Positions 4,145 through 25,922 of a stretch of DNA of 30,189 nucleotides are shown here, piece after piece. The stretch spans positions 1-30,189 of the IMG/VR virus record IMGVR_UViG_2663762810_000004; one strand, 5' to 3'. Each line of letters opens with the position of its first letter. The first letter of the stretch is position 1. Source of the DNA: a virus (Duplodnaviria; Heunggongvirae; Uroviricota; Caudoviricetes). Both the position numbers and the translations under genes were made by a program. Under the pieces are notes generated by a model. That model was not told the origin of the DNA and searched no databases. It saw only the letters and a program-made list of their open reading frames with translations.

Positions 4145-4996
4145 ATGAAAATAGATAATCCCGAAAATCCACTTGAACGAAACGATTTTTCGATGGATGA
4201 CTTCCATCACTACTTAAGGGAGTTTGATAAAGCTGTATGTGAAGCGAATGCTGTAAGTCAGGGGGTTGGTGTGCGAATGGCTGAGGCTTTTAAAGGGTGG
4301 TCTACATACATTTTTTCACGAATCTGCATTCATGCTTCAATAATGATTTCCAACGTACCAAAATCAAGATGGGCTAAGCGGGATTATGACTTTTGGGATT
4401 TTTCGGCGATTGCACCTCATGTAAGAGCGATTCTGGAAGCTGAGTTATTGTTTATGTATTTATCTGAGAATCCAGATTCAACTGAGGAGTGGTCAGCAAA
4501 GTTGAATGTCATGCACATGAATGATTGTGTAAAGAGAATTGAGTTATTTACATCTAGTGATAATACGAAAGCATTGGATTTTTATCATGAACAAAAAGAT
4601 ATAATAACTGAGAGACTTAATAACAACCCTGTTTTTTTATCCCTTGAACAAGGAACCAGAAAACGTTGCTTGACTGGAAAAGCGCTTATGATTCCAAATC
4701 GAGATGAGTTATTGGTTAAACTGGGAAAAGATCCAAAGTCATTTAAAATAATGTTCGATTTTTTATCTCATTATACGCATATACTACCTATGTCATATTA
4801 TAAAATGGAGCCAAACGGAAGAGGAACTGGTTGTTTTAACAACTATGACTTTGGCTATATGATTATGGGGATGATTATTTGTACTGAATCCTTGACTAAG
4901 TGTACAGATAGATTAGTAGAACTTTTTCCTGATGTTAGACGGTTGCGAAAAGGAACTAAATCAAAATTCACGTTAGGTCCTAAACCTACAAAATAA
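4145..4996 (+). CDS. AT-rich hypothetical cargo protein (283 aa)
   Basis: Long ORF in a distinctly AT-rich block between the Q terminator and the lysis cassette. No recognisable family. Confidence 0.6.
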   Translation: MKIDNPENPLERNDFSMDDFHHYLREFDKAVCEANAVSQGVGVRMAEAFKGWSTYIFSRICIHASIMISNVPKSRWAKRDYDFWDFSAIAPHVRAILEAELLFMYLSENPDSTEEWSAKLNVMHMNDCVKRIELFTSSDNTKALDFYHEQKDIITERLNNNPVFLSLEQGTRKRCLTGKALMIPNRDELLVKLGKDPKSFKIMFDFLSHYTHILPMSYYKMEPNGRGTGCFNNYDFGYMIMGMIICTESLTKCTDRLVELFPDVRRLRKGTKSKFTLGPKPTK

Positions 4997-7530: not shown

Positions 7531-7672
7531 GGTTATTGACACCGGCTGCGATTGGGTAAAACCCATCTACGGCACTGCTCATGATTGGGAAGTGCTGGAC
7601 AGGCAGACCAAGAAAGACATTCTTATGCATAACAAAGTGTGGATGTCAAACTGTGGCTCTATAACTTATTGA
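7451..7672 (+). CDS. o-spanin (Rz1-like outer-membrane lipoprotein), overlapped type
   Basis: Signal peptide with lipobox LIASC. Begins in the +1 frame inside the i-spanin gene and extends beyond it. Confidence 0.6.
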   Translation: MYNRLLTICLMTLLIASCAKTGHVRIEVIDTGCDWVKPIYGTAHDWEVLDRQTKKDILMHNKVWMSNCGSITY

Positions 7673-8322
7673 TTTTGTTTTTTGTTGTCTACCATATCAG
7701 GCAATGTGAAGGCATATAGAAGAAATACTTCGGTGAAACCAATCATTTCTTGAGCATCTTCTTTTGAAAATTCTTCATCAGAATGAACTGCTCCATTGGA
7801 ATCGATTCGAACTATATGTGCCCATTCCCTCATTTGATCTGTAATCAGTCCCTTAGCATGCAACATAGAAATCCGTTTAACCAATTTTTCATCTTTTGAG
7901 TCATTTCCCAGTAACTCCCGTGTAGCAATGTCCAAGACTTTACGGCAAAGCATAACGGATGTGTCGAAACGACAGCGCCCTAAGTTGTCTTTTGCTTCTA
8001 TGAAAGCCATAGCAGCACGTGGCGGAGTGTGTTCGGGGGCGTTAAGGAGGGTGGGTTTCGGGATGATATCAATCAACTGGTACTCAGTATTTCCAGGAAT
8101 GATTACGTTTACATCATTATTTTGCCTAGATTTTGCACGAGGTAAATAACCACCGGGATTATTCATTTTTACAATAGCAATACCTGATTGAAAACAGCTT
8201 CGACAACAAAATGCAATATTAACTAAAGGCCCGGCGTTGATACGCAGTTCTGCCCATCCTTCAAGGACAGCATTTTCCCTCAGACAATGTGGGCAAGTGA
8301 TATCGAAAGTGAGAATTCGCAT
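7666..8322 (-). CDS. DUF4145-like protein with N-terminal Cys cluster (candidate abortive-infection/defence gene). Start taken at MRILTFD (8320-8322).
   Basis: C-terminal region (RKVLDIATRELLG...HAKGLITDQMREWAHIVRIDSNGAVH) matches the recalled DUF4145 helical signature. N-terminal CPHC...CCRSC suggests a zinc ribbon. Lies in the moron slot between lysis and packaging genes. Confidence 0.6.
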   Translation of the reverse strand: MRILTFDITCPHCLRENAVLEGWAELRINAGPLVNIAFCCRSCFQSGIAIVKMNNPGGYLPRAKSRQNNDVNVIIPGNTEYQLIDIIPKPTLLNAPEHTPPRAAMAFIEAKDNLGRCRFDTSVMLCRKVLDIATRELLGNDSKDEKLVKRISMLHAKGLITDQMREWAHIVRIDSNGAVHSDEEFSKEDAQEMIGFTEVFLLYAFTLPDMVDNKKQNQ

Positions 8323-9067
8323 GACTCTACTCCATACATTAAAAGAAATTGAAAATGAATTACACAATGCACAACGACCTGAGTCTACACTCCTTCAACG
8401 ATATGAAGTATCGAATGAGATTAAAAAAAAGGAGTTTGTAGTCGCTTTGATCGGTAAACTGATAGAATTGGACCGCCGTCTCTATGTCACATCATTGAAG
8501 CCTTAGTTTCAATTTTACCGATTTATCGCTTAAGGGGTAGGACTTCAACACTACTAAGTGAGCATTGCAGCAGGCATTCAGGGGAATGCTGTGACAGTAG
8601 TTAGCTAGGGTAAACCGTTTGCGCCTGGGGATTTTACTTTGCGACGGAAAATTAAAAAACTATATGATTTCTTATCCCACTAGGATGTCTGCGGACTACT
8701 ACTGACTGTTTAGGCTATTACGAGGGGCTCAAACTCAACGTCTGGCATCAACGCAGAACTGAAAAAGTCGCCATGAATGTGGTTACGGTATTTGGTGGGA
8801 TATAAACGTACCTTCATTTCTAAGCTTGATAATCACCTTTGTCCGAATTGCCTACGCGATAGTCATGTAGTTTTAGTCATAACCGTTTACCCTATTGATG
8901 TCAAGATAAATTGGATAACACTGATGAATCGAACCTCTAAATCCTTTGATGGGCCACTCATAGCTGACTGGTTCAAAAAAGTGTTATCAATGGTATGATA
9001 AGTTGAGATGAAAGGTGTAAATGAACTATAATAATTCAACAGTTAATCTGAGAAAAATGGATTATGT

Positions 9068-15541: not shown

Positions 15542-16333
15542 ATGCCACAGATTGAAGAATTACGTCGTCAGCGTGCGGGTATTAATGAGCAGGTTCAGGC
15601 CCTGGCCACGATTGAAACTACCGGTGGAACGCTGACAGCGGAGCAGTTAACCGAATTTGCCAGCATGCAGCAGCAGTTCACGGATATCAGCGCCAAAATT
15701 GAGCGTCTGGAAGCGGCTGAACGTGCCGCGGCGCTTGTTGCCACACCGGTTAGAGGCACACAGCAGGCTCCTGGTGTCATCGTTAAGGCGGAGCCAAAGC
15801 AATATACCGGGGCAGGCATGACCCGTCTGGTGATGTCGATTGCAGCAGCGGAGGGTAACATCCAGGAGGCTGCAAAATTTGCGGCGGAAGAACTGAATGA
15901 CCCGTCTGTCTCGATGGCCATCAGCACTGCCGCTGCGTCAGGCGGCGTTCTTATTCCGCAAAACCTTCACAGCGAAGTGATTGAGCTACTGCGCGATCGT
16001 ACCATCGTTCGTAAGCTGGGCGCGCGCTCCATTCCGCTGCCGAACGGCAATATGGCGCTGCCGCGTCTGGCCGGTGGAGCGACGGCGAACTATACCGGGG
16101 AAGGTAAGGATGCGAAAACATCAGAAGCGCGCTTTGACGATGTGAAACTCACTGCGAAAACCATGATTGCGATGGTGCCCATCTCAAATCAGCTCATTGG
16201 CCGCGCAGGTTTTAACGTTGAACAACTGGTATTGCAGGATATTCTGACGGCGATTTCTGTTCGCGAAGATACCTGCACCGTCAGAGAGTACGTCGTTCAT
16301 TTTGACGGTCAGGCTGTTTTCTGCCACCGCTGA
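15542..16333 (+). pseudogene. Major capsid protein, truncated (N-terminal delta domain plus part of the capsid fold only)
   Basis: Coiled-coil delta-like N terminus and capsid-like middle region, but only 263 aa. The ORF ends in unrelated sequence and is followed about 130 bp later by tail gene L, with all intervening head-tail genes absent. Confidence 0.65.
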
Positions 16334-16462
16334 ACAACTGATCAACATTCCAGCCATCACTAATATTCTTAATTCCATGATTAATGTTCCTTTTCTGTCA
16401 ATGACATCAATATTCTTATGTGATGGAGAGGTCTTTTTTCAACCAGTTTTACAGAAAGGATT

Positions 16463-17164
16463 TTGATTATGCAGGACGTCCCACAGGACACGCTTAACGA
16501 AACCACCCGAACAGAGCAGTCCGCCCGAATCAGTCTCTGGGAATTTGATGCAACAGCCATCGGAGGGGAGCGTTATTTTTTCTGTAATGAGCCCAATGAA
16601 AAAGGCGAGCCGGTGACCTGGCAGGGGCGACAGTATGAGCCTTACCCGATACAGTCAGATGATTTTGAGATGAACGGCGTCGGCCCGGCGCCGCGTATCA
16701 GCCTTGTCGTGTCGAATATGTTTGGTCTGGTGACGGGCATGGCGGAAGATCTGCAGAGTCTGACCGGCGCGCGGGTGGTGCGTCGCCTGGTGTATGCAAA
16801 ATTTCTCGATGCGGTGAATTTCGTGAACGGCAATCCGGATGCCGATCCGGAACAGGAGGCCGTGGCCTGGTATGTGGTGGAGCAGCTCTCGGAACTCACA
16901 TCCGGCACTGCCACATTTATTCTCGCTAACCCTGTTGAAACTGACGGCTCGGTGTTTCCGGCACGTATTATGCTGGCGGATATCTGTACGTGGACATACC
17001 GGGGAGATGAGTGCGGGTATGACGGCCCGCCGGTAGCCGATGAATTTGATAAACCCACCTCAGATCCTGCAAAGGATCAATGCAGCAGATGTCCTGCAGG
17101 ATGCAGGCTACGTAACAATATTGCCAGAGCAGGCTTTTTTATCTCCATTAACAAACTTTCCTGA
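16463..17164 (+). CDS. L: Minor tail protein L (lambda gpL-like)
   Basis: Matches the recalled lambda gpL nearly along its length (NEPNEKGEPVTWQGRQY...PYPIQ, TWTYRGDECGY, SINKLS). Confidence 0.9.
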   Translation: MIMQDVPQDTLNETTRTEQSARISLWEFDATAIGGERYFFCNEPNEKGEPVTWQGRQYEPYPIQSDDFEMNGVGPAPRISLVVSNMFGLVTGMAEDLQSLTGARVVRRLVYAKFLDAVNFVNGNPDADPEQEAVAWYVVEQLSELTSGTATFILANPVETDGSVFPARIMLADICTWTYRGDECGYDGPPVADEFDKPTSDPAKDQCSRCPAGCRLRNNIARAGFFISINKLS

Positions 17165-17918: not shown

Positions 17919-18526
17919 ATTCAGCGGCGGAAGGGCTGCATGCGCTGTTTATGCAGATACCGGAATTCCGTCAAAAACTGAACGAAGGCTGGTACCAGGT
18001 CCGGATTTCAGGACAGGATATTGCTTCTGATGAGGTGACCGCCCGGCTGCATGAGCCTTTACTGCCGGGGGCTGTCATTCATATCGTGCCCCGGGCCGAA
18101 GGTGCAAAATCCGGCTGGGGGGGGATAATTCTGGGGGGAATTCTGGTCGCCGCTTCATTTATCCCCGGGCTGAATGCAATGGTGGCGACCGCCATGCTTT
18201 CATTTGGTATCTCAGCGACACTGGGGGGCGTGGCGCAGTTACTGACCCCGAAAGTGAATACGGCGGATGGCAATACAGCCGATAACGGTAAGCAGAGTAC
18301 ATACTTTTCCTCACTCGAAAACATGATTGCCCAGGGGAATCCGATGCCGGTACCGTACGGTGAAATTATGGTGGGGTCCCGGCGGATTTCGCAGACCCTG
18401 AGTACACGGGATGAGAGCTCGCCGGAGAAGGTGATTAATTATGGCGGACCGTTCGCCCGGTACGAGGAGCTCATGTTACAGATTGCCGGGCTGCCCATTA
18501 CGAAGCCTCGAGTTATTGTGCACTGA
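17816..18526 (+). CDS. I: Tail assembly protein I (lambda gpI-like), with a divergent C terminus
   Basis: N-terminal 200 aa match recalled lambda gpI (PGMARICLYGDLQRFGRRIDL ... DNGKQSTYFSSLENM...PVPYGE); the last 35 aa or so do not. Overlaps K as in lambda. Confidence 0.85.
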   Translation: MATPHTLNLASPGMARICLYGDLQRFGRRIDLSINSAAEGLHALFMQIPEFRQKLNEGWYQVRISGQDIASDEVTARLHEPLLPGAVIHIVPRAEGAKSGWGGIILGGILVAASFIPGLNAMVATAMLSFGISATLGGVAQLLTPKVNTADGNTADNGKQSTYFSSLENMIAQGNPMPVPYGEIMVGSRRISQTLSTRDESSPEKVINYGGPFARYEELMLQIAGLPITKPRVIVH

Positions 18527-18595
18527 CGCAGTTTCACAGCGTACCGATACTGACCGCCCTGATGGCGGTTTTGTCATTTATGGAGTGAGTAAAAC

Positions 18596-18985
18596 ATGGG
18601 TGGGAAGAACAAGAAAAAGCAGAGCACGCCGTATGAAGAGCCGGATAACCTGAAATCGGTACAGGAACTGAGCTTCATTGACGCCATCGGGGAAGGGCCG
18701 ATCGAGGGACTGGTTAAGGGGATGCAAAGTATCCTTATCAACAACACCCCCCTGGTAAATGACGATGACAGCTACAACGTACACGGTGTCACAGCAATTT
18801 ATAACGCCGGTGAACAGGAGCAGACCCCGCTGGAGGGGTTTGAAGATACCGGCGTGGAGGTCATGGTCAACGCTGAGATCAAACAGGATGCCCCCATTAC
18901 CCGGACCATTTCGGCGCGGAAGATGTTGTGCTTACAGGCACTTGGCAGGCTATGGGGTATTACCGGGAGGCCTATTATCAACTAA
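18596..18985 (+). pseudogene. J: Tail tip/host-specificity protein J, N-terminal fragment only (about 106 aa of J, then unrelated tail)
   Basis: Residues 1-106 match the lambda gpJ N terminus (DNLKS.Q...DAI.EGPIEG ... AGEQEQTP.EGFE ... PITRTI). The frame then runs into unrelated sequence and stops; lambda J is over 1100 aa. Confidence 0.8.
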
Positions 18986-19018
18986 CGCTTTTCCAGCGCA
19001 TTCGTTGAGGGGAAATCG

Positions 19019-19621
19019 ATGACAACCATAACTGATGCCCGTCACGGGCGATATAACGGGAACGGGACGATTTCGGTTCAGGTGCTGTTCAGTGACAGTG
19101 AGCGCTATCTTCCCTATACCGCGGCAGCTCATGACCCGACTGACTATGGTCAGCAGCTCTATTCAGACCTGGTCGCCGGTAAATACGGCGAAGTGACACC
19201 GTTTACCGTTACTGAGGCGATGCTGGCGTCAGCCAGACAGGCTAAGCGGGATGAAATTAACGCCTGGCGCGATGCGCAGGAAGAGAAAGAGTATCTGATG
19301 ACCTGGAACGGCAGGCGGTGGGATTATGGCAAAAAAACGCAGTCCCGGATGAGTACCTCTGTGACCATGGCATCACGAAATGTCCTGCCGGATGGCTTTG
19401 CCTGGACTGATGGTGATAACACTGTCGTGCCGGTGACAGCGGAAGAACTGCTCGCGCTGGCAGACGCCATTGAAAAGGCGATGTTTGAAAAGGGCATGCA
19501 GATTAACCAGCGTCAGTTGCAGATGAAAGCCGAAATGAATGCACTGACTGTGCTGGACGCCATCAGAAATTACAGGGTGGGCTGGAATGAATCTGTGGAG
19601 GACATAACCAGAACAGGGTAA
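19019..19621 (+). CDS. Tail-associated protein, possibly DUF4376-like (tail fibre assembly/chaperone-like)
   Basis: 200 aa ORF with good start context after the J fragment. The C-terminal helical region (KRDEINAWRDAQE ... LLALADAIEKAM) resembles the recalled DUF4376 pattern; assignment is tentative. Confidence 0.55.
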   Translation: MTTITDARHGRYNGNGTISVQVLFSDSERYLPYTAAAHDPTDYGQQLYSDLVAGKYGEVTPFTVTEAMLASARQAKRDEINAWRDAQEEKEYLMTWNGRRWDYGKKTQSRMSTSVTMASRNVLPDGFAWTDGDNTVVPVTAEELLALADAIEKAMFEKGMQINQRQLQMKAEMNALTVLDAIRNYRVGWNESVEDITRTG

Positions 19622-19635
19622 GGGCGGGAGACAGT

Positions 19636-19950
19636 ATGGGAACCAGGGTACTGGCAGTGGGAAGAGCGTGGCAGCAACTGACCGACGGTGAGGAGAATAT
19701 GATTTTTACGTTTTCTGGTGTCATCGAACTGTGTGACAGCGATATCAGGCCGGGAGAGTCTGCTCTTTCCCTGAGGTACCCCGGACAAACCATTATTATT
19801 TCCCCGCCCACAAAGGCATGGGTGAGGGCTGCGGGTTATGACAATACGGTCAGGCTGTTCATTAGTGACAGAGTAGCAGCCAGCGTCCCTGTGATTAAAA
19901 ACAGAGTGGGCCAGAAGGGGCCGGAGGCGTTATGGCAACCAGAGAAATGA
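19636..19950 (+). CDS. Small hypothetical protein, paralog 1 of a tandem pair
   Basis: 104 aa; the N terminus (TRVLAVGRAWQQLTDGE) is paralogous to the next ORF (TREMIVGREWQELTDGS), as is AAGYDNTVRL vs ASGYDGSVRV. Confidence 0.5.
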   Translation: MGTRVLAVGRAWQQLTDGEENMIFTFSGVIELCDSDIRPGESALSLRYPGQTIIISPPTKAWVRAAGYDNTVRLFISDRVAASVPVIKNRVGQKGPEALWQPEK

Positions 19951-20165
19951 TTGTGGGGCGGGAGTGGCAGGAGCTGACTGACGGCAGTCAGACCGTTTTT
20001 GTCCAGATAAACGGGGTGGCTGATGTCTGCTCCAGCGCCCGGAAACCTGACACCGCGCATCCTGCGCACAATATGAATAATGAAAAATTCACGACCACCC
20101 CCCCGGACCGGCTGTGGATCAGAGCATCAGGATATGACGGCAGTGTCCGGGTCATTGTGACATAG
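19932..20165 (+). CDS. Small hypothetical protein, paralog 2 of a tandem pair
   Basis: 77 aa; shares N- and C-terminal motifs with the preceding ORF and overlaps its 3' end. Confidence 0.5.
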   Translation: MATREMIVGREWQELTDGSQTVFVQINGVADVCSSARKPDTAHPAHNMNNEKFTTTPPDRLWIRASGYDGSVRVIVT

Positions 20166-20174
20166 GAGATTAAG

Positions 20175-22232
20175 ATGCCCATTCTTGCACCAGGATTTTT
20201 GGGAGGCTCGTCCGCCGGGAATGGCGGCGGGCCGGTCTCTTCAGTTCAGCAGCCGGAATACTTCTATGTCATCCCGGTTGCCGGTCAGTCAAACGCGATG
20301 GCCTACGGCGAAGGGCTCCCCCTTCCAGACACGCTGGATGCGCCTCACCCGCGTATTAAACAGCTGGCCCGGCGCGCCACGGTAACGCCCGGCGGCGATG
20401 CCTGCAAATACAACGACATTATTCCTCTCGATCACTGTCCGCACGATGTTCAGGACATGAGCGGGATCAGCCACCCGAGAGCGGACCTCAGTAAAGGGCA
20501 ATATGGGTGTGTCAGCCAGACGCTGCACATTGCCAGAAAACTCCTGGCCTGGATCCCCGATAACGCAGGTATTCTGATGGTGCCCTGTTGTCGCGGTGGC
20601 TCTGCCTTCACGCAGGGAGTGGACGGCACTTTCAACGTTGTCAGTGGTGCCAGCGAAACCGCAACCCGATGGGGGGCGGGAAAGCCGTTGTACCGTGACC
20701 TGCTCACCCGCACGAAAGCAGCGCTCGACAGCAACCCGAAAAATATGCTGCTGGCGGTATGCTGGATGCAGGGTGAATTTGATATGACAGGGGCGGCTTA
20801 TGCACAGCAGCCTGCGCTGTTCGACGCTATGGTCAGGCAGTTCCGTACCGACCTGGCGGATTACGCGGGGCAGTGCCCGGACTTCCGGCCTGACAGTGTG
20901 CCGTGGCTGTGCGGGGACACCACGTACTACTGGAAGCGCAACTATCCCGCCCAGTACGATGCTGTTTATGGCGCGTACAGTAAAACCAGTGTCAGCGGCG
21001 TACATTTTGTGCCGTTCATGGTCAGCGAGGATGGCACGAACACCCCTACCAACGCCCCGGCTGAGGATCCGAATGTTCCGGCTGCGGGGTATTTCGGCTC
21101 GGCATCCCGTACTTCTGCCAACTGGACCAGCTCGATCCGCAACAGTCATTTCAGTTCGTGGGCCCGGCGAAACATCATCGCAGAACGTATGGCGGCGGCC
21201 ATTCTGCTGCACGCCGGGCGACGGTCACTGCTGGCGGCCCCGGTTAGTGGAAGTGCAGCGTCTTCAACGGGCGATACAGGCAATGTGGGAACGAGTACGC
21301 TGAAATACGCCCCTGTTGTGGAGGACGCCGGTTATAACGGGCGGCGCGGGGACGGGACGCCGGAGGCCCAGGGCTGGTCAGCCAGCGGCGGTAATTTTAA
21401 CGTGGCACCACACCCGGATGGTAAAGGGGGGCATGTGCTGCAGATCCGCAGAAAAGCCAGTGAAGTCTGGAAAATGGAACGGGCAACCCGACAGGCCGCT
21501 GATTTGTTACGGTATGGTGGCGAGGTGCAGTGCAACTTCCGGCTCGTTAATACACTGACGGCAAACCAGTTTGCTTTTGGCTGCTATCTGCTGGTGAATG
21601 AATCGGATGTTCCGGCCGGAGCCTCGTTACGGCTGAAAGCCGAGGGCACCACACCGGCGCTGATGAATTTCTTCATACAGACGAATGCTACAGATTTGAA
21701 TCTGATGATGCACTGCAAACCCGACAATATCAGGCTGGGTACGTACGGTGCGTACAATCAGGACTGGCATTCGTTCAGGGTCGTTTACCATGGCGGAAAC
21801 ACAGCCCGGGCCACGCTTTATCTCGATGGTGAGTCGAAGGGCGAGTTCACGCTGGCGTACTCGCCGGGGGCTGTCGATGCAGGCATGCTGCAACTGACAA
21901 ATATCACCTCCTCACCGACCTATGGATGCAATATTAAGGATTTTACCGTCAAAATTTACCGCGACGATGCCATAGTCAGTCTGCCTGACGACGATGTGTC
22001 CAGTCTGATTTATTTTCCGGCGGGGGAGCGCGGCGGGAAAGTGGTGTTACCGGATGCGAAAATCAGCGCAGGAAACACAGTGCAGGTGGTGGTGAACAAT
22101 GCCGGTATCATCGCCATTGAACCAGCAAGCAGCAACGTACTGCTTAACAATCTGCCTTCTTCTGCAACCACTGACAGAAGTGTCACGCTGGTTCAGACCA
22201 GTCTGGACGGGAAGACCTGGGTGATTACCTGA
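20175..22232 (+). CDS. Tail-fibre-region protein with an N-terminal SGNH hydrolase/sialate-O-acetylesterase-like domain and a C-terminal lectin-like region (NanS-p-like)
   Basis: N-terminal FYVIPVAGQSNAMAYGE (GQSN motif) and CWMQGEFDM are typical of the SGNH/SASA esterase family. 685 aa; the 3' end is duplicated downstream at about 25216-25383. Confidence 0.75.
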   Translation: MPILAPGFLGGSSAGNGGGPVSSVQQPEYFYVIPVAGQSNAMAYGEGLPLPDTLDAPHPRIKQLARRATVTPGGDACKYNDIIPLDHCPHDVQDMSGISHPRADLSKGQYGCVSQTLHIARKLLAWIPDNAGILMVPCCRGGSAFTQGVDGTFNVVSGASETATRWGAGKPLYRDLLTRTKAALDSNPKNMLLAVCWMQGEFDMTGAAYAQQPALFDAMVRQFRTDLADYAGQCPDFRPDSVPWLCGDTTYYWKRNYPAQYDAVYGAYSKTSVSGVHFVPFMVSEDGTNTPTNAPAEDPNVPAAGYFGSASRTSANWTSSIRNSHFSSWARRNIIAERMAAAILLHAGRRSLLAAPVSGSAASSTGDTGNVGTSTLKYAPVVEDAGYNGRRGDGTPEAQGWSASGGNFNVAPHPDGKGGHVLQIRRKASEVWKMERATRQAADLLRYGGEVQCNFRLVNTLTANQFAFGCYLLVNESDVPAGASLRLKAEGTTPALMNFFIQTNATDLNLMMHCKPDNIRLGTYGAYNQDWHSFRVVYHGGNTARATLYLDGESKGEFTLAYSPGAVDAGMLQLTNITSSPTYGCNIKDFTVKIYRDDAIVSLPDDDVSSLIYFPAGERGGKVVLPDAKISAGNTVQVVVNNAGIIAIEPASSNVLLNNLPSSATTDRSVTLVQTSLDGKTWVIT

Positions 22233-22239
22233 AAAAAAA

Positions 22240-22271
22240 GCCGCTTCTGTAACAGGAAAGACAGAAGCGGC
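22240..22271 (-). terminator. Hairpin terminator at the 3' end of the esterase gene; the U-tract is on the minus strand
   Basis: Perfect 11 bp stem GCCGCTTCTGT/ACAGAAGCGGC preceded on the plus strand by A8 (a T-run on the minus strand). Duplicated at about 25389-25420. Confidence 0.5.
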
Positions 22272-22335
22272 CATGTAGTGCTACTTGCGTTTTTATAAGG
22301 CTATTTTCGGTAGTAAATATGCAGCGTCCTCGTTA

Positions 22336-22920
22336 CAGAGGACACGTAATGTATTTCACCAGCAGGAAACGGAAGGCAAGAGATCGAGCTCTCATTTTTA
22401 ACAGAAATTTATTAGGACAAAATATTGACAGTTATCAGTAAAAAAGGCCGCTTCTACTTTTGGGGAGGAAGCGGCCGGTGAACTACGATGATAATAATGC
22501 TTTCTGACTACATATGTCTTATCGACACAACCCAGTCCTCGGGCAGGTATATTTATTTCACCTGCAGGAAAGAGAAAACAGTGATCAGTCTCTCATTTTT
22601 GAGAAAAATCATAGAAATAAATGATTGCGGGTAAAAAAAACGCTTCACCACAGTAAAGGATGAAGCGTGAGTCAGAATAAAAGTATTCATAAATCCACGT
22701 TTGCATTACTTCCTATACATACAGAAGTAAGGTTACTTATTTCACCTGCAGGGAAAAAAAGGCAAGGATTTGGATCTCATTTTTGAAGAGAACGCCGAAA
22801 AAATAGAATGAAAGGTAAAAAAAACGCTTCAACACAGGACAGGGTGAAGCGCCAGACATAATACAAATCCAATAAACGTAATTTTACTCTTTCAGCACTT
22901 CTGCTCCATACAGAAGTGCA
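22336..22920. repeat. Three tandem ~185-200 bp units of a periodic repeat family (conserved 5' TATTTCACC-[A/T]GCAGG, central CTCATTTTTGA, A-run plus hairpin), followed by a fourth unit fused to the DUF1353-like gene
   Basis: TATTTCACC motif at 22352, 22554, 22738 and 22926; TCTCATTTTTGA about 38 bp downstream of the first three; A7-8 plus hairpin (GGCCGCTTC/GAAGCGGCC, CGCTTCA/TGAAGCG) about 90 bp downstream. Confidence 0.7.
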
Positions 22921-22952
22921 ATATGTATTTCACCATCAGGCGGAACAAGTCA

Positions 22953-23333
22953 ATGAGTAAATTCACCACCCCGGCGATACTGGAAATGCTGGGTCATTAC
23001 AAATGGCGGGTGTACGAACCCTTCGAGTTTTACCTCTCGGATGACAACAGCGATGTGATTAAGGTCCCGGCGGGGTTTGTGACCGATCTGGCAAGCGTGC
23101 CCCGGATATTCTGGACATTCCTCCCACCTGATGGGCGGTATGCCAAAGCAGCTATCATTCATGATTACATGTACGATAATGCGCTACGGACAAAGAAAGA
23201 AGCCGATCTCATTTTTCTGGACGGGATGCGGGTACTGGGTGTGCCAGAGTGGAAGCGTTCGGTGATGTACCACGCTGTACGGATGTTTGGTAAAGGGCGG
23301 TATGCGCAGAATAGAACCCTTCCAGGTGTTTAG
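22953..23333 (+). CDS. DUF1353-like small protein, copy 1. Start taken at MSKFTT (22953).
   Basis: Conserved VPAGFVTDLASVPR ... AAIIHDYMYD pattern recalled for DUF1353. Near-identical second copy at 25923-26303 and a decayed copy at 24808. Confidence 0.6.
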   Translation: MSKFTTPAILEMLGHYKWRVYEPFEFYLSDDNSDVIKVPAGFVTDLASVPRIFWTFLPPDGRYAKAAIIHDYMYDNALRTKKEADLIFLDGMRVLGVPEWKRSVMYHAVRMFGKGRYAQNRTLPGV

Positions 23334-23423
23334 TCACCAGTTCCGGAAGATCAGCTCGGCTGAGTCGGGCTTCTATCGACTGAAATAACTTCTCCATTTC
23401 GTTCTTGTACATATGAATTCCAC

Positions 23424-23460
23424 AGAAAAAATGCCACTTATCTGGCTTCCAGATAAGTGG
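23424..23460 (-). terminator. Rho-independent terminator for the minus-strand cargo gene; also present in the duplicated copy at about 26394-26430
   Basis: Perfect palindrome CCACTTATCTGG-cttc-CAGATAAGTGG preceded on the plus strand by AAAAAAT (a U-tract on the minus strand). Confidence 0.5.
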
Positions 23461-23485
23461 CCAGTCAACGGTAGAACGCTTCTAC

Positions 23486-24370
23486 TTAGCTTTTTGTGAA
23501 ACGGTAAAATAAATTGGGCTCACTGACAATATACAAATTAAATTTGTCATCGATAGTAATGCCCTCTGCTTGTTTAATATCCTTTGTTAATCCCGACCAC
23601 CCTGCATCCAGATAGAGTCGATCGGTAATACGTCCCACAGGATTAACTTCAACCACTATTTTTGATTCATCTGAAAGTATCAGTAGTGAAGATGTTAGAG
23701 GATGGTAATGCAGCCCAGATACATCCTTCAAAGACGAAGTGATAACGGTTGGAAAAATTTTAATATGCGCATCATCATTCTGGGGAAATATTCTGCTAAT
23801 GATTATTGGTATTTTTTCCTTTGCTGAATATAAATGCTGTTTCTCTTTATCCCAGGCCAGTCCTTCCAGTCCGTTGTTTTTGGGAGTGGCGTAATCATTA
23901 AACTTAATCTTCGAAATGACAGTATAACTAAAAGCATGTAAGTCTAATTTTACCATCCAGGCTGTGCTGTTTTTCTCACTTCCTATATAGAATACATCTT
24001 TACCAACCCACTCTACAGCTTCTGTATCCTCAAATTCAGGTAAGGTCATACTTCCCACTCTGTCGCCTTCCTTTGTCAGCCATATCAGTTCTGGTGGGTT
24101 ATTAACAACAGCAAACAGAAGTTTGTGTTTATCTGACCAGGTCAGGCCAGACAGATTATTCTTTACACCTTCAACAGGTTTGCCCTCTATGTCTGCCCGA
24201 TATGCGCTAAGATTAAGGCTTGTTGGGATATCTTCATATTTTTCATATAATCGATAGATATATATTATATCCTTATAGATGTACATAAAACAAACCACAA
24301 AAATAGCCACAAAAATTAAATACCTTAAATATATGCTCAATATTTCATCCAAATAATAAAGTAAAGCCAA
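23486..24370 (-). CDS. AT-rich cargo protein with N-terminal hydrophobic segment and beta-rich body (possibly YjiK/SdiA-regulated-like propeller; unconfirmed)
   Basis: 294 aa ORF in a strongly AT-rich block flanked by the two DUF1353 repeat copies and followed by a terminator. N terminus LIFVAIFVVCFMYIY is hydrophobic; the true start may be a later Met. Confidence 0.6.
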   Translation of the reverse strand: MALLYYLDEILSIYLRYLIFVAIFVVCFMYIYKDIIYIYRLYEKYEDIPTSLNLSAYRADIEGKPVEGVKNNLSGLTWSDKHKLLFAVVNNPPELIWLTKEGDRVGSMTLPEFEDTEAVEWVGKDVFYIGSEKNSTAWMVKLDLHAFSYTVISKIKFNDYATPKNNGLEGLAWDKEKQHLYSAKEKIPIIISRIFPQNDDAHIKIFPTVITSSLKDVSGLHYHPLTSSLLILSDESKIVVEVNPVGRITDRLYLDAGWSGLTKDIKQAEGITIDDKFNLYIVSEPNLFYRFTKS

Positions 24371-24965: not shown

Positions 24966-25383
24966 GGGGACAGAGCCCTGGTTTCAGAGTTGACAGTTTG
25001 CCGTGGTTGTGCCGAGGAGCACAACGTACTAATCATTGCAAAACGCATGTCTGGCGATGCAGGTATGCTGCAGCTGGCAAATACCACCTCGTAATCGACC
25101 TGTAGATGCAATATTAAGGATTTCAGAGTCAAAATTTACCGGGATGTGTAGTGATCAGTCGTTTTTTTCTGTGGGAAGCTGCCGCGGGAAATCAGTACTG
25201 CTGGATACAGAAACCAGCGTGGGGAATACGGTACAGGTGGTGGCGAACAATGCCGGTATCATCGCCATTGAACCAGCAAGCAGCAACGTACTGCTTAACA
25301 ATCTGCCTTCTTCTACAACCACTGACAGAAGTGTCACGCTGGTTCAGACCAGTCTGGACGGGAAGACCTGGGTGATTACCTGA
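24966..25383 (+). pseudogene. Decayed remnant of the esterase tail-fibre gene 3' end (internally deleted, with in-frame stops)
   Basis: Nucleotide similarity to 20885-20930 and 21880-22232 of the intact gene, with stops. The last 160 bp or so (VGNTVQVVANNAGIIAIEPASSNVLLNNLPSS...TWVIT) are near-identical to 22075-22232, as is the downstream hairpin. Confidence 0.6.
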
Positions 25384-25890: not shown

Positions 25891-25922
25891 AGATTTATTT
25901 CACCAGCAGACGGAATAAGTCA

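Follow-up and report, generated by a model that had tools for sequence, protein, structure and literature searches.

The esterase gene and its domains

We analysed a stretch of 30,189 nucleotides (IMG/VR virus record IMGVR_UViG_2663762810_000004, Caudoviricetes), referred to here as the window, and focused on its gene at 20175 to 22232. With high confidence, we read this gene as an intact sialate O-acetylesterase gene of the NanS-p family, the split form of a cupin and esterase unit, stranded in a decayed prophage. An earlier annotation made from the sequence alone (the first-pass annotation) had described the same open reading frame (ORF), and its coordinates, strand, length and start codon were found exactly as given there. 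The gene and its domains are as follows:

20175..22232, plus strand: NanS-p-family sialate O-acetylesterase gene, 685 aa, ATG start
20238..21209, plus strand: catalytic SASA/SGNH domain, aa 22-345 (match to PDB 3PT5, E 1.1e-124; Foldseek template modelling (TM) score 0.86)
21333..21956, plus strand: lectin-like jelly-roll domain (DUF6645), aa 387-594 (match to 6YP6, E 2e-35; Foldseek TM 0.88)
21972..22229, plus strand: C-terminal extension, aa 600-685, all-β (eight strands in the AlphaFold2 (AF2) model; predicted local distance difference test (pLDDT) 80-91)

A ribosome-binding site (GGAG) lies 8 nt 5' of the ATG at 20175, and a TAG three codons ahead of this ATG ends the preceding ORF. Only about 20 residues precede the catalytic domain, as in chromosomal NanS, and GQSN occupies residues 37-40; the product does open with its catalytic domain, as had been described. 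Pfam SASA was matched at 33.7 bits (gathering cut-off 24.8) and Pfam DUF6645 at 70.8 bits (aa 446-564). The PHROG family phrog_143 aligned to residues 21-599 over profile positions 64-632 of 634 (E 5.5e-248), and the ORF is thus about 63 N-terminal residues short of the typical phage protein and about 86 C-terminal residues longer. This late start of the alignment, together with the lack of any Pfam match to DUF1737 (PF08410) in the esterase, bears out the earlier statement that the extra N-terminal domain of typical NanS-p proteins is absent. The N-terminus (MPILAPGFLGGSSAGNGGG...) has no basic or hydrophobic core and therefore no signal peptide. A 99% identical protein, P0001, carries the NCBI name 'sialate O-acetylesterase'.

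Active site and predicted structure

Residues 22-345 were found to be 58% identical to E. coli NanS (YjhS; 3PT5). The active-site blocks of 3PT5 are GQSNA, RGGSAF, MQGEFD and RxSHFS (PMC10792757), and identical blocks were present in the esterase at residues 37-41 (GQSNA), 140-145 (RGGSAF), 198-203 (MQGEFD) and 322-327 (RNSHFS); in 3PT5, GQSNA lies at 17-21 and MQGEFD at 178-183. In an alignment of 51 sequences, G37, Q38, S39, N40, Q199, G200, E201 and H325 were invariant. SASA enzymes of the NanS type use a Ser-His pair and an inverted oxyanion hole held by (H)QGE, without a Block V Asp, and an (H/M)QGE motif in Block III characterises SASA (PMC9487903). Ser39 would be the nucleophile and His325 the base, with Gln38 and Q199-G200-E201 forming a predicted SASA-type oxyanion hole. 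The first-pass annotation had named a Ser/His/Asp arrangement as the thing to look for; the Ser and the His were found, but the Asp is unsuited to this family, since NanS itself has no Block V Asp and its absence would not count against activity.

The AF2 model (mean pLDDT 77.8) consists of three globular domains and a disordered linker at 349-373, with no elongated shaft of the coiled-coil, β-helix or collagen-like kind. Confidence was low for the first 23 residues, the linker and several loops of the catalytic domain, and reached 80-97 from about residue 380. Foldseek retrieved 3PT5 (58% identity) and 6YP6, followed by the sialic-acid-binding lectin domain of the V. cholerae sialidase (2w68) and by Akkermansia sialidases. 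The model is nearly entirely β from residue 376, which together with the DUF6645 and 6YP6 matches agrees with the β-rich, probably carbohydrate-binding C-terminal region proposed earlier.

The 86-aa C-terminal domain, which lies beyond the end of the Shiga toxin (Stx)-phage NanS-p proteins, had gone unremarked in the first-pass annotation. It is common to the Salmonella-type relatives and absent from Stx-phage NanS-p. No Pfam match was obtained for it at E<=1, and the C-terminal 127 aa used as a tblastn query gave no match in 50,697 phage records; so far as these searches reach, it appears to belong to no described family. A kinship with the NHL repeats of PknD, raised by a profile search of the PDB, was weak and not significant (E 0.009) and was rejected. 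The same lectin domain and C-terminal extension were found on a sialidase, P0147 (831 aa), made up of a fibre-like N-terminus, a BNR sialidase, DUF6645 and the extension; here the enzyme module appears to have been swapped on a shared lectin and C-terminal scaffold.

The N-terminal module upstream of the esterase

Two small ORFs directly precede the esterase:

19636..19950, plus strand: small cupin-fold protein, copy 1, 104 aa (phrog_4772, 2.5e-13; cupin hidden Markov model, E 1.3e-28)
19932..20165, plus strand: small cupin-fold protein, copy 2, 77 aa (phrog_4772), in the esterase frame and ending in TAG, 9 nt before the esterase ATG

A minimal cupin fold was predicted for the 77-aa protein (pLDDT 96). 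Both ORFs show homology to full-length Salmonella esterases over the first ~75 residues of the latter, with matches to the fused proteins P0060 (1.7e-22), P0073 (9e-11) and P0018 (1e-8) and an alignment also to P0028, and a readthrough translation of the window is collinear with fused P0060. The missing front domain thus appears, from these homologies, to be encoded as a separate small gene directly upstream. The homology of the in-frame 77-aa ORF to the N-terminal domain of fused relatives had not been remarked in the first-pass annotation, which had nonetheless left room for an upstream in-frame extension supplying an anchor. A homologous in-frame module is indeed there, but as a separate ORF whose role as an anchor is putative.

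Among the best 120 homologue clusters, 37 begin with DUF1737, 23 with a fused cupin and 24 with other long N-termini; 31 start no more than 60 residues from GQSN, like the window protein, and the remaining five are partial and lack GQSN. These N-terminal modules (DUF1737, cupin, fibre and others) form a mosaic and share one junction, located before EPEYY(F/Y)V. When 1.84 billion representatives were searched with a profile, 77 matched the small cupin domain, 76 of them being stand-alone proteins of 45-107 aa. The profile (350 positions) also took in part of P0060, and only matches at positions 1-90 (77 of 110) were counted as cupin matches. No tblastn match to the 77-aa ORF was found in the 50,697 phage records.

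The split layout recurs. In Salmonella locus L011, whose esterase is 60% identical, a 78-aa ORF, TGA, the spacer GGAGGAGAA and ATG follow each other in one frame. L027 has the same arrangement of stop, Shine-Dalgarno sequence and ATG in one frame with a 15-nt spacer, and in L026 the small gene is in a different frame and overlaps the esterase start as ATGA. Split forms keep the N-terminal motif M-x-I-x-x-G. The occurrence of the same split in three independent Salmonella or metagenome loci argues for a stable two-gene layout and not for a fresh break.

The decayed prophage and the deletion in J

The window holds an entire decayed prophage, with an integrase, Q, two holins, a GH19 endolysin, HNH, TerS, TerL, a portal, an S49 protease, a cut capsid gene and tail genes L, K and I. 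Of the major capsid gene at 15542-16463, only 263 aa are left (Pfam profile positions 1-111 of 280), and tail gene L comes directly after it, with no head-completion, tail-tube, chaperone or tape-measure gene present. Between I and the cupin ORFs lie:

18596..18910, plus strand: first 105 codons of tail-tip gene J (phrog_1727/phrog_31 match, residues 2-108), the remainder being deleted
18911..19008, plus strand: last 31 codons and stop of a PF08400-type Stf-like side-tail-fibre gene (421 aa), out of frame to the J remnant; homology to L006/L007 runs from 18911
19019..19621, plus strand: Tfa-type tail-fibre assembly chaperone (DUF4376), 200 aa (Pfam DUF4376, 1.8e-19; phrog_1141), its fibre gone

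TfaMu-type chaperones have DUF4376 as their conserved C-terminal domain (PMC7882524, PMC10579305). The order L-K-I-J'-Tfa ahead of the esterase places it in the tail-fibre region, and J is truncated, both as previously noted. What is left of J is now a chimeric ORF of 129 aa. When set against L004/L005, which keep 1672 more bases, the deletion junction falls between 18910 and 18911. The frame-2 translation at the fibre remnant (...AEDVVLTGTWQAMGYYREAYYQLTLFQRIR, then stop) is the C-terminus of the 421-aa L006 protein.

The related loci show successive stages of prophage decay. In L006/L007 the C-terminus of J and the 421-aa PF08400 Stf-like fibre are followed by the same block, including the identical 685-aa gene with its start. 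From 18911 on, this block (Tfa/DUF4376, 104-aa ORF, 77-aa ORF, esterase, spacer and DUF1353 gene) is 99-100% identical in L004-L007. The shared block is intact from 18911, so the deletion that truncated J is unrelated to it, and the esterase is no broken fibre. The first-pass annotation had offered a broken fibre as one of two explanations. It does not hold against the identical gene behind an intact J C-terminus and fibre in L006/L007, the homologue clusters (31 of the best 120) that likewise begin within 60 residues of GQSN, and a J deletion that leaves the esterase cassette untouched.

The exact protein was found on nine contigs, from E. coli assemblies and human-gut metagenomes, and the window is identical to two assemblies. 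On its right flank lie genes for a PmrD-family protein, DUF1398, an MlrA-like MerR protein and a BLUF-EAL protein, which we take to be the E. coli iraM-ycgX-bluR-bluF neighbourhood by the e14/icd site. A megablast search with 18500-22400 gave no match in the 50,697 phage records. With the same 3.9-kb query, 5,426 complete E. coli genomes gave at most 14% coverage, the match (72% identity) being to Q-proximal nanS-p genes. Close DNA relatives are thus absent from those phage and E. coli collections.

Distribution of the cassette

Synteny was drawn from 10 targeted contig look-ups. Lambdoid prophages (the window, L006/7, L008 and L011/12) have the esterase behind a fibre/Tfa(DUF4376) pair. So do the Mu-like L015/16, with com/mom after the esterase, and the HP1-like tail operon L025, in which the esterase start and the Tfa stop overlap. 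DUF1353 follows the esterase in five of the contexts compared, and the pairing recurs in L011, L015, L026 and L027. In L027 (1-5693) the cassette follows a polyvalent protein of more than 2,675 aa (LPD5, LPD1, MuF_C, LPD38) and not tail-fibre genes; its protein P0002 is the closest non-identical cassette relative, at 84% identity. We conclude that small cupin(s), esterase and DUF1353 form a portable late-operon cassette, usually behind a side-fibre/Tfa pair.

The DUF1737-bearing Salmonella version is flanked by lysB and tail gene R in a P2-like prophage, and a stand-alone cupin gene fills the same lysB-R slot in another P2-like phage. Another stand-alone cupin gene lies between lysis and terminase genes (L028). 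In P0076 a PF08400 fibre N-terminus and a coiled coil are fused directly to the esterase, and this N-terminus shows 36% identity (E 1.6e-25) with the Stf-like protein of 421 aa in L006. Of eight loci from a wider scan of genome contigs, most were chromosomal nanS or Q-proximal nanS-p. In a Salmonella lambdoid prophage (L011/L012, 10716-12941) the esterase-DUF1353 cassette adjoins cdtA/cdtB/cdtC-like cytolethal distending toxin genes.

Function of the esterase

By analogy with NanS and Stx-phage NanS-p, the enzyme would remove 7-, 8- and 9-O-acetyl groups from free and mucin-bound sialic acids, and its lectin jelly-roll would bind sialoglycans. NanS prefers 9-O-acetyl N-acetylneuraminic acid (Neu5Ac) (PMC9487903, PMC10792757), and the NanS-p enzymes of enterohaemorrhagic E. 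coli are active on Neu5,9Ac2 and on mucin (PMC8065619, PMC8319020). The spacing between the esterase and the upstream late genes is tight, and Q, the holins and the endolysin are retained. The esterase would probably be made together with the late genes and, if expressed, would be a soluble cytoplasmic enzyme that is freed by lysis and reaches its substrate only then. No particle can be assembled from the window, so any activity would be that of a free enzyme. Of the two explanations in the first-pass annotation, the free carbohydrate esterase is thus the one that stands, and in a prophage unable to build a virion it is the only possible role.

Several points weigh against this reading. The Pfam SASA match is partial (aa 110-228), and AF2 confidence is low in loops that include 39-54 around Ser39; the catalytic assignment therefore rests on sequence identity to 3PT5. 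Forty-two per cent of the catalytic-domain residues differ from NanS, and specificity could differ with them. The GC content of the gene is 58% against 47% for the entire window, which suggests recent import, in which case conservation says little about selection in this host; the low coverage among complete E. coli genomes likewise marks the gene as rare in E. coli. Finally, for the whole subfamily with the C-terminal extension, we infer substrate, expression and virion attachment in intact relatives from sequence.

Alternative readings

It is highly improbable that the 685-aa ORF is the chance re-initiation product, or a pseudogene, left when a nonsense TAG at 20163 split a cupin-esterase fusion. 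The two ORFs do share one frame with only one stop and three codons between them, readthrough would be collinear with P0060, and the prophage around the esterase is decaying. The spacer, however, holds a canonical GGAG and ATG, and the same stop, Shine-Dalgarno sequence and ATG recur in L011 at 60% aa identity and in L027, with the different-frame ATGA version in L026. Split forms conserve M-x-I-x-x-G, the 76 stand-alone cupin clusters make a separate gene the common state, and the arrangement is identical in loci with intact J and Stf. The esterase might be an orphaned virion component, displayed on the particle of intact relatives as a side-fibre or decoration enzyme and docked by the cupin, fused or as a subunit, by analogy with DUF1737 docking on the phi24B capsid. 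We regard this as possible but doubtful, and it is with the same reserve that the window gene might be a leftover structural gene whose docking site was deleted. In phi24B the NanS-p protein gp84 is reported to be a capsid-decoration protein whose DUF1737 binds hexon centres, the esterase later being freed by autoprocessing (bioRxiv 10.64898/2026.04.10.717836). Display is also favoured by the fibre-esterase fusion P0076, with its N-terminus related to the Stf-like protein that precedes the cassette in L006, and by the mosaic of N-termini joined at one point. The position of the esterase directly after Tfa in five phage backgrounds, with the overlapping start in L025, points the same way, as does the cupin of a P2-like phage in the slot that holds a DUF1737-esterase in another P2-like prophage. 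For the window, display in relatives is compatible with a free enzyme and differs from it on the ancestral role. Nevertheless, some stand-alone cupin genes are remote from tail genes, as in the lysis-terminase interval of L028, and the L027 cassette is behind a polyvalent-protein gene. A position at the prophage end beside cargo (cdtABC, an SrgE-like gene, com/mom) is a classic moron position too, searches of the 50,697 sequenced phages turned up neither the cupin nor the C-extension type, and the cupin fold itself is uninformative on docking. The fibre-fused and cupin-fused relatives and the phi24B preprint together make display in intact relatives plausible; we keep it tentative because any docking partner of the cupin is hypothetical and cupin genes are not confined to tail loci. 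A broader version of the idea is rather unlikely in our estimate. It would make the minimal phrog_4772 cupins a second virion-surface docking family, and the NanS-p esterases and the related sialidase particle-displayed sialoglycan enzymes with interchangeable anchors. These anchors would be the DUF1737 capsid binder, the PF08400 fibre N-terminus, and the cupin, either fused or capturing the M-x-I-x-x-G N-terminal peptide.

The tail-fibre locus and P0076 could also be taken to mean that the esterase acts on the receptor and not on mucin sialic acids, deacetylating O-antigen, capsule (e.g. O-acetylated K1 polysialic acid), enterobacterial common antigen or colanic acid for adsorption. The SGNH-esterase tailspikes of some lytic phages would be the model, G7C with its esterase tailspike gp63.1 being one example; Vi phages have acetylesterases. 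A review raises the deacetylation of lipopolysaccharide by NanS-p as an aid to adsorption (PMC8065619). Against this stand the catalytic domain, 58% identical to NanS with identical active-site blocks and hence to an enzyme that prefers 9-O-acetyl Neu5Ac, the resemblance of the lectin domain to sialic-acid-binding modules, and the BNR sialidase P0147, whose shared lectin and C-extension point to sialoglycans. The carriers, moreover, are mostly Salmonella, which to our knowledge rarely makes sialylated surface polymers. We consider receptor modification quite unlikely and retain the reading of an intact NanS-p-family esterase that would act, in the window, as a free enzyme on sialic acids.

Downstream and neighbouring features

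Downstream of the esterase, a spacer and a DUF1353 gene are followed by remains of a second copy of the cassette:

22233..22952, no strand assigned: AT-rich spacer (39% GC) of ~3.5 degenerate tandem units of ~185-200 bp, with four hairpins and an A-run before each
22953..23333, plus strand: DUF1353 protein, 126 aa (Pfam DUF1353, 2.4e-31; start as called in L002-L007)
25056..25380, plus strand: frameshifted second esterase remnant corresponding to aa 568-685 (blastn, 84% identity to 21871-22298; tblastn, two pieces in different frames)
25893..26303, plus strand: second DUF1353 gene

The motif TATTTCACC(N)GCAGG was found in the spacer at 22352, 22554, 22738 and 22926, the last copy being the DUF1353 leader. 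The first hairpin, GCCGCTTCTGT-N10-ACAGAAGCGGC, lies directly 3' of the esterase stop, and on the minus strand the spacer hairpins would resemble intrinsic terminators. A promoter and terminator scan gave the same counts as in shuffled sequence, and no Rfam match was obtained for the spacer. Its repeats are too diverged for Tandem Repeats Finder, which found none; they were seen by a separate repeat search. The phospholipase A2 TtaP belongs to the DUF1353 family (PMC11525133). The stretch 25893-26448 is 95% DNA-identical to 22923-23477, and this second DUF1353 gene and the esterase remnant indicate that the cassette was once duplicated or that two prophage ends recombined. Between the cassette copies lies an SdiA-regulated/SrgE-like gene (23486-24370, minus strand; PF06977, 4.9e-72; 36% GC), which looks like inserted cargo.

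Two further genes of low GC content (~35-41% regionally), encoding DUF5677 and DUF4145 proteins (4145-4996 and 7666-8367, minus strand), flank the lysis cassette between Q and the terminase and may be defence or moron cargo. At the prophage end (27454-27643 and 26748-27407, both minus strand), an isrK Hfq-binding small RNA (79 bits) and a C4 antisense RNA (75 bits) adjoin a Bro-N/P22_AR_C antirepressor-like gene.

Significance

With NanS-p esterases, enteric pathogens can use the O-acetylated sialic acids of mucin as food. The locus reveals a large undescribed Salmonella/E. coli branch of these enzymes, in which DUF1737 is swapped for a cupin, fused or separate, or for a fibre N-terminus. Members of this branch have an additional, new C-terminal domain, and a DUF1353 (phospholipase-A2-family) gene accompanies them behind the tail-fibre genes. 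Should the anchors prove functional, this would argue that the esterase serves primarily on the virion, helping it to bind or penetrate mucus, and is not only a nutritional gift to the lysogen. The locus extends the idea that NanS-p is a virion protein in a testable form, and nothing in it contradicts expectation. In this strain the prophage is dead, and the gene is simply cargo that has stayed intact.

A full-text literature search found no paper on DUF6645, on the cupin partner or on the tail-locus branch, and the Salmonella relatives are only pipeline-annotated. The enzyme itself is ordinary; the split or fused cupin module, the C-extension and the portable DUF1353 cassette are undescribed.

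Comparison with known systems

Judged by its sequence, the window protein has all the SASA/NanS features that were compared, together with the NanS-p lectin domain. Chromosomal E. coli NanS (YjhS) shares blocks I, II, III and V in identical form, and in both proteins the catalytic domain comes almost at the start. NanS, however, is a single-domain protein (solved chain of 337 residues), whereas the window protein has a lectin domain and the C-extension as well and is prophage cargo. The chromosomal nanS gene lies in the nanCMS operon.

Stx-phage NanS-p has the same order of SASA domain and DUF6645 lectin jelly-roll, with ~52% identity over aa 27-598 (333 phage records), and is likewise prophage-borne, transcribed with the late genes and devoid of a signal peptide. 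Two NanS-p features are lacking in the window, namely the DUF1737 domain and the Q-proximal position. Where NanS-p carries the DUF1737 capsid binder, the window protein has a separate small cupin gene, and its 86-aa C-terminal β-domain is extra. The NanS-p gene sits between Q/stx and the lysis genes, whereas the window gene is 13 kb downstream of the lysis genes, after the fibre/Tfa pair.

SGNH-esterase tailspikes and fibres such as G7C gp63.1 resemble the locus in having a carbohydrate esterase among tail-fibre genes, and the relative P0076 is a true fibre-esterase fusion. The window ORF differs from them in having a catalytic domain of the SASA/NanS type and neither anchor nor shaft within the polypeptide: about 20 low-confidence residues precede the catalytic domain, and the cupin is a separate ORF. 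The Salmonella prophage esterases P0058, P0005, P0028 and P0060 are 60-67% identical to the window protein over 96-100% of the length, including the C-extension, and share the DUF1353 cassette and the position after Tfa; with P0058, the cupin gene is split off in the same way. Many of the Salmonella proteins carry a fused cupin or other N-terminal modules, and the window copy is a rare E. coli representative of this group.

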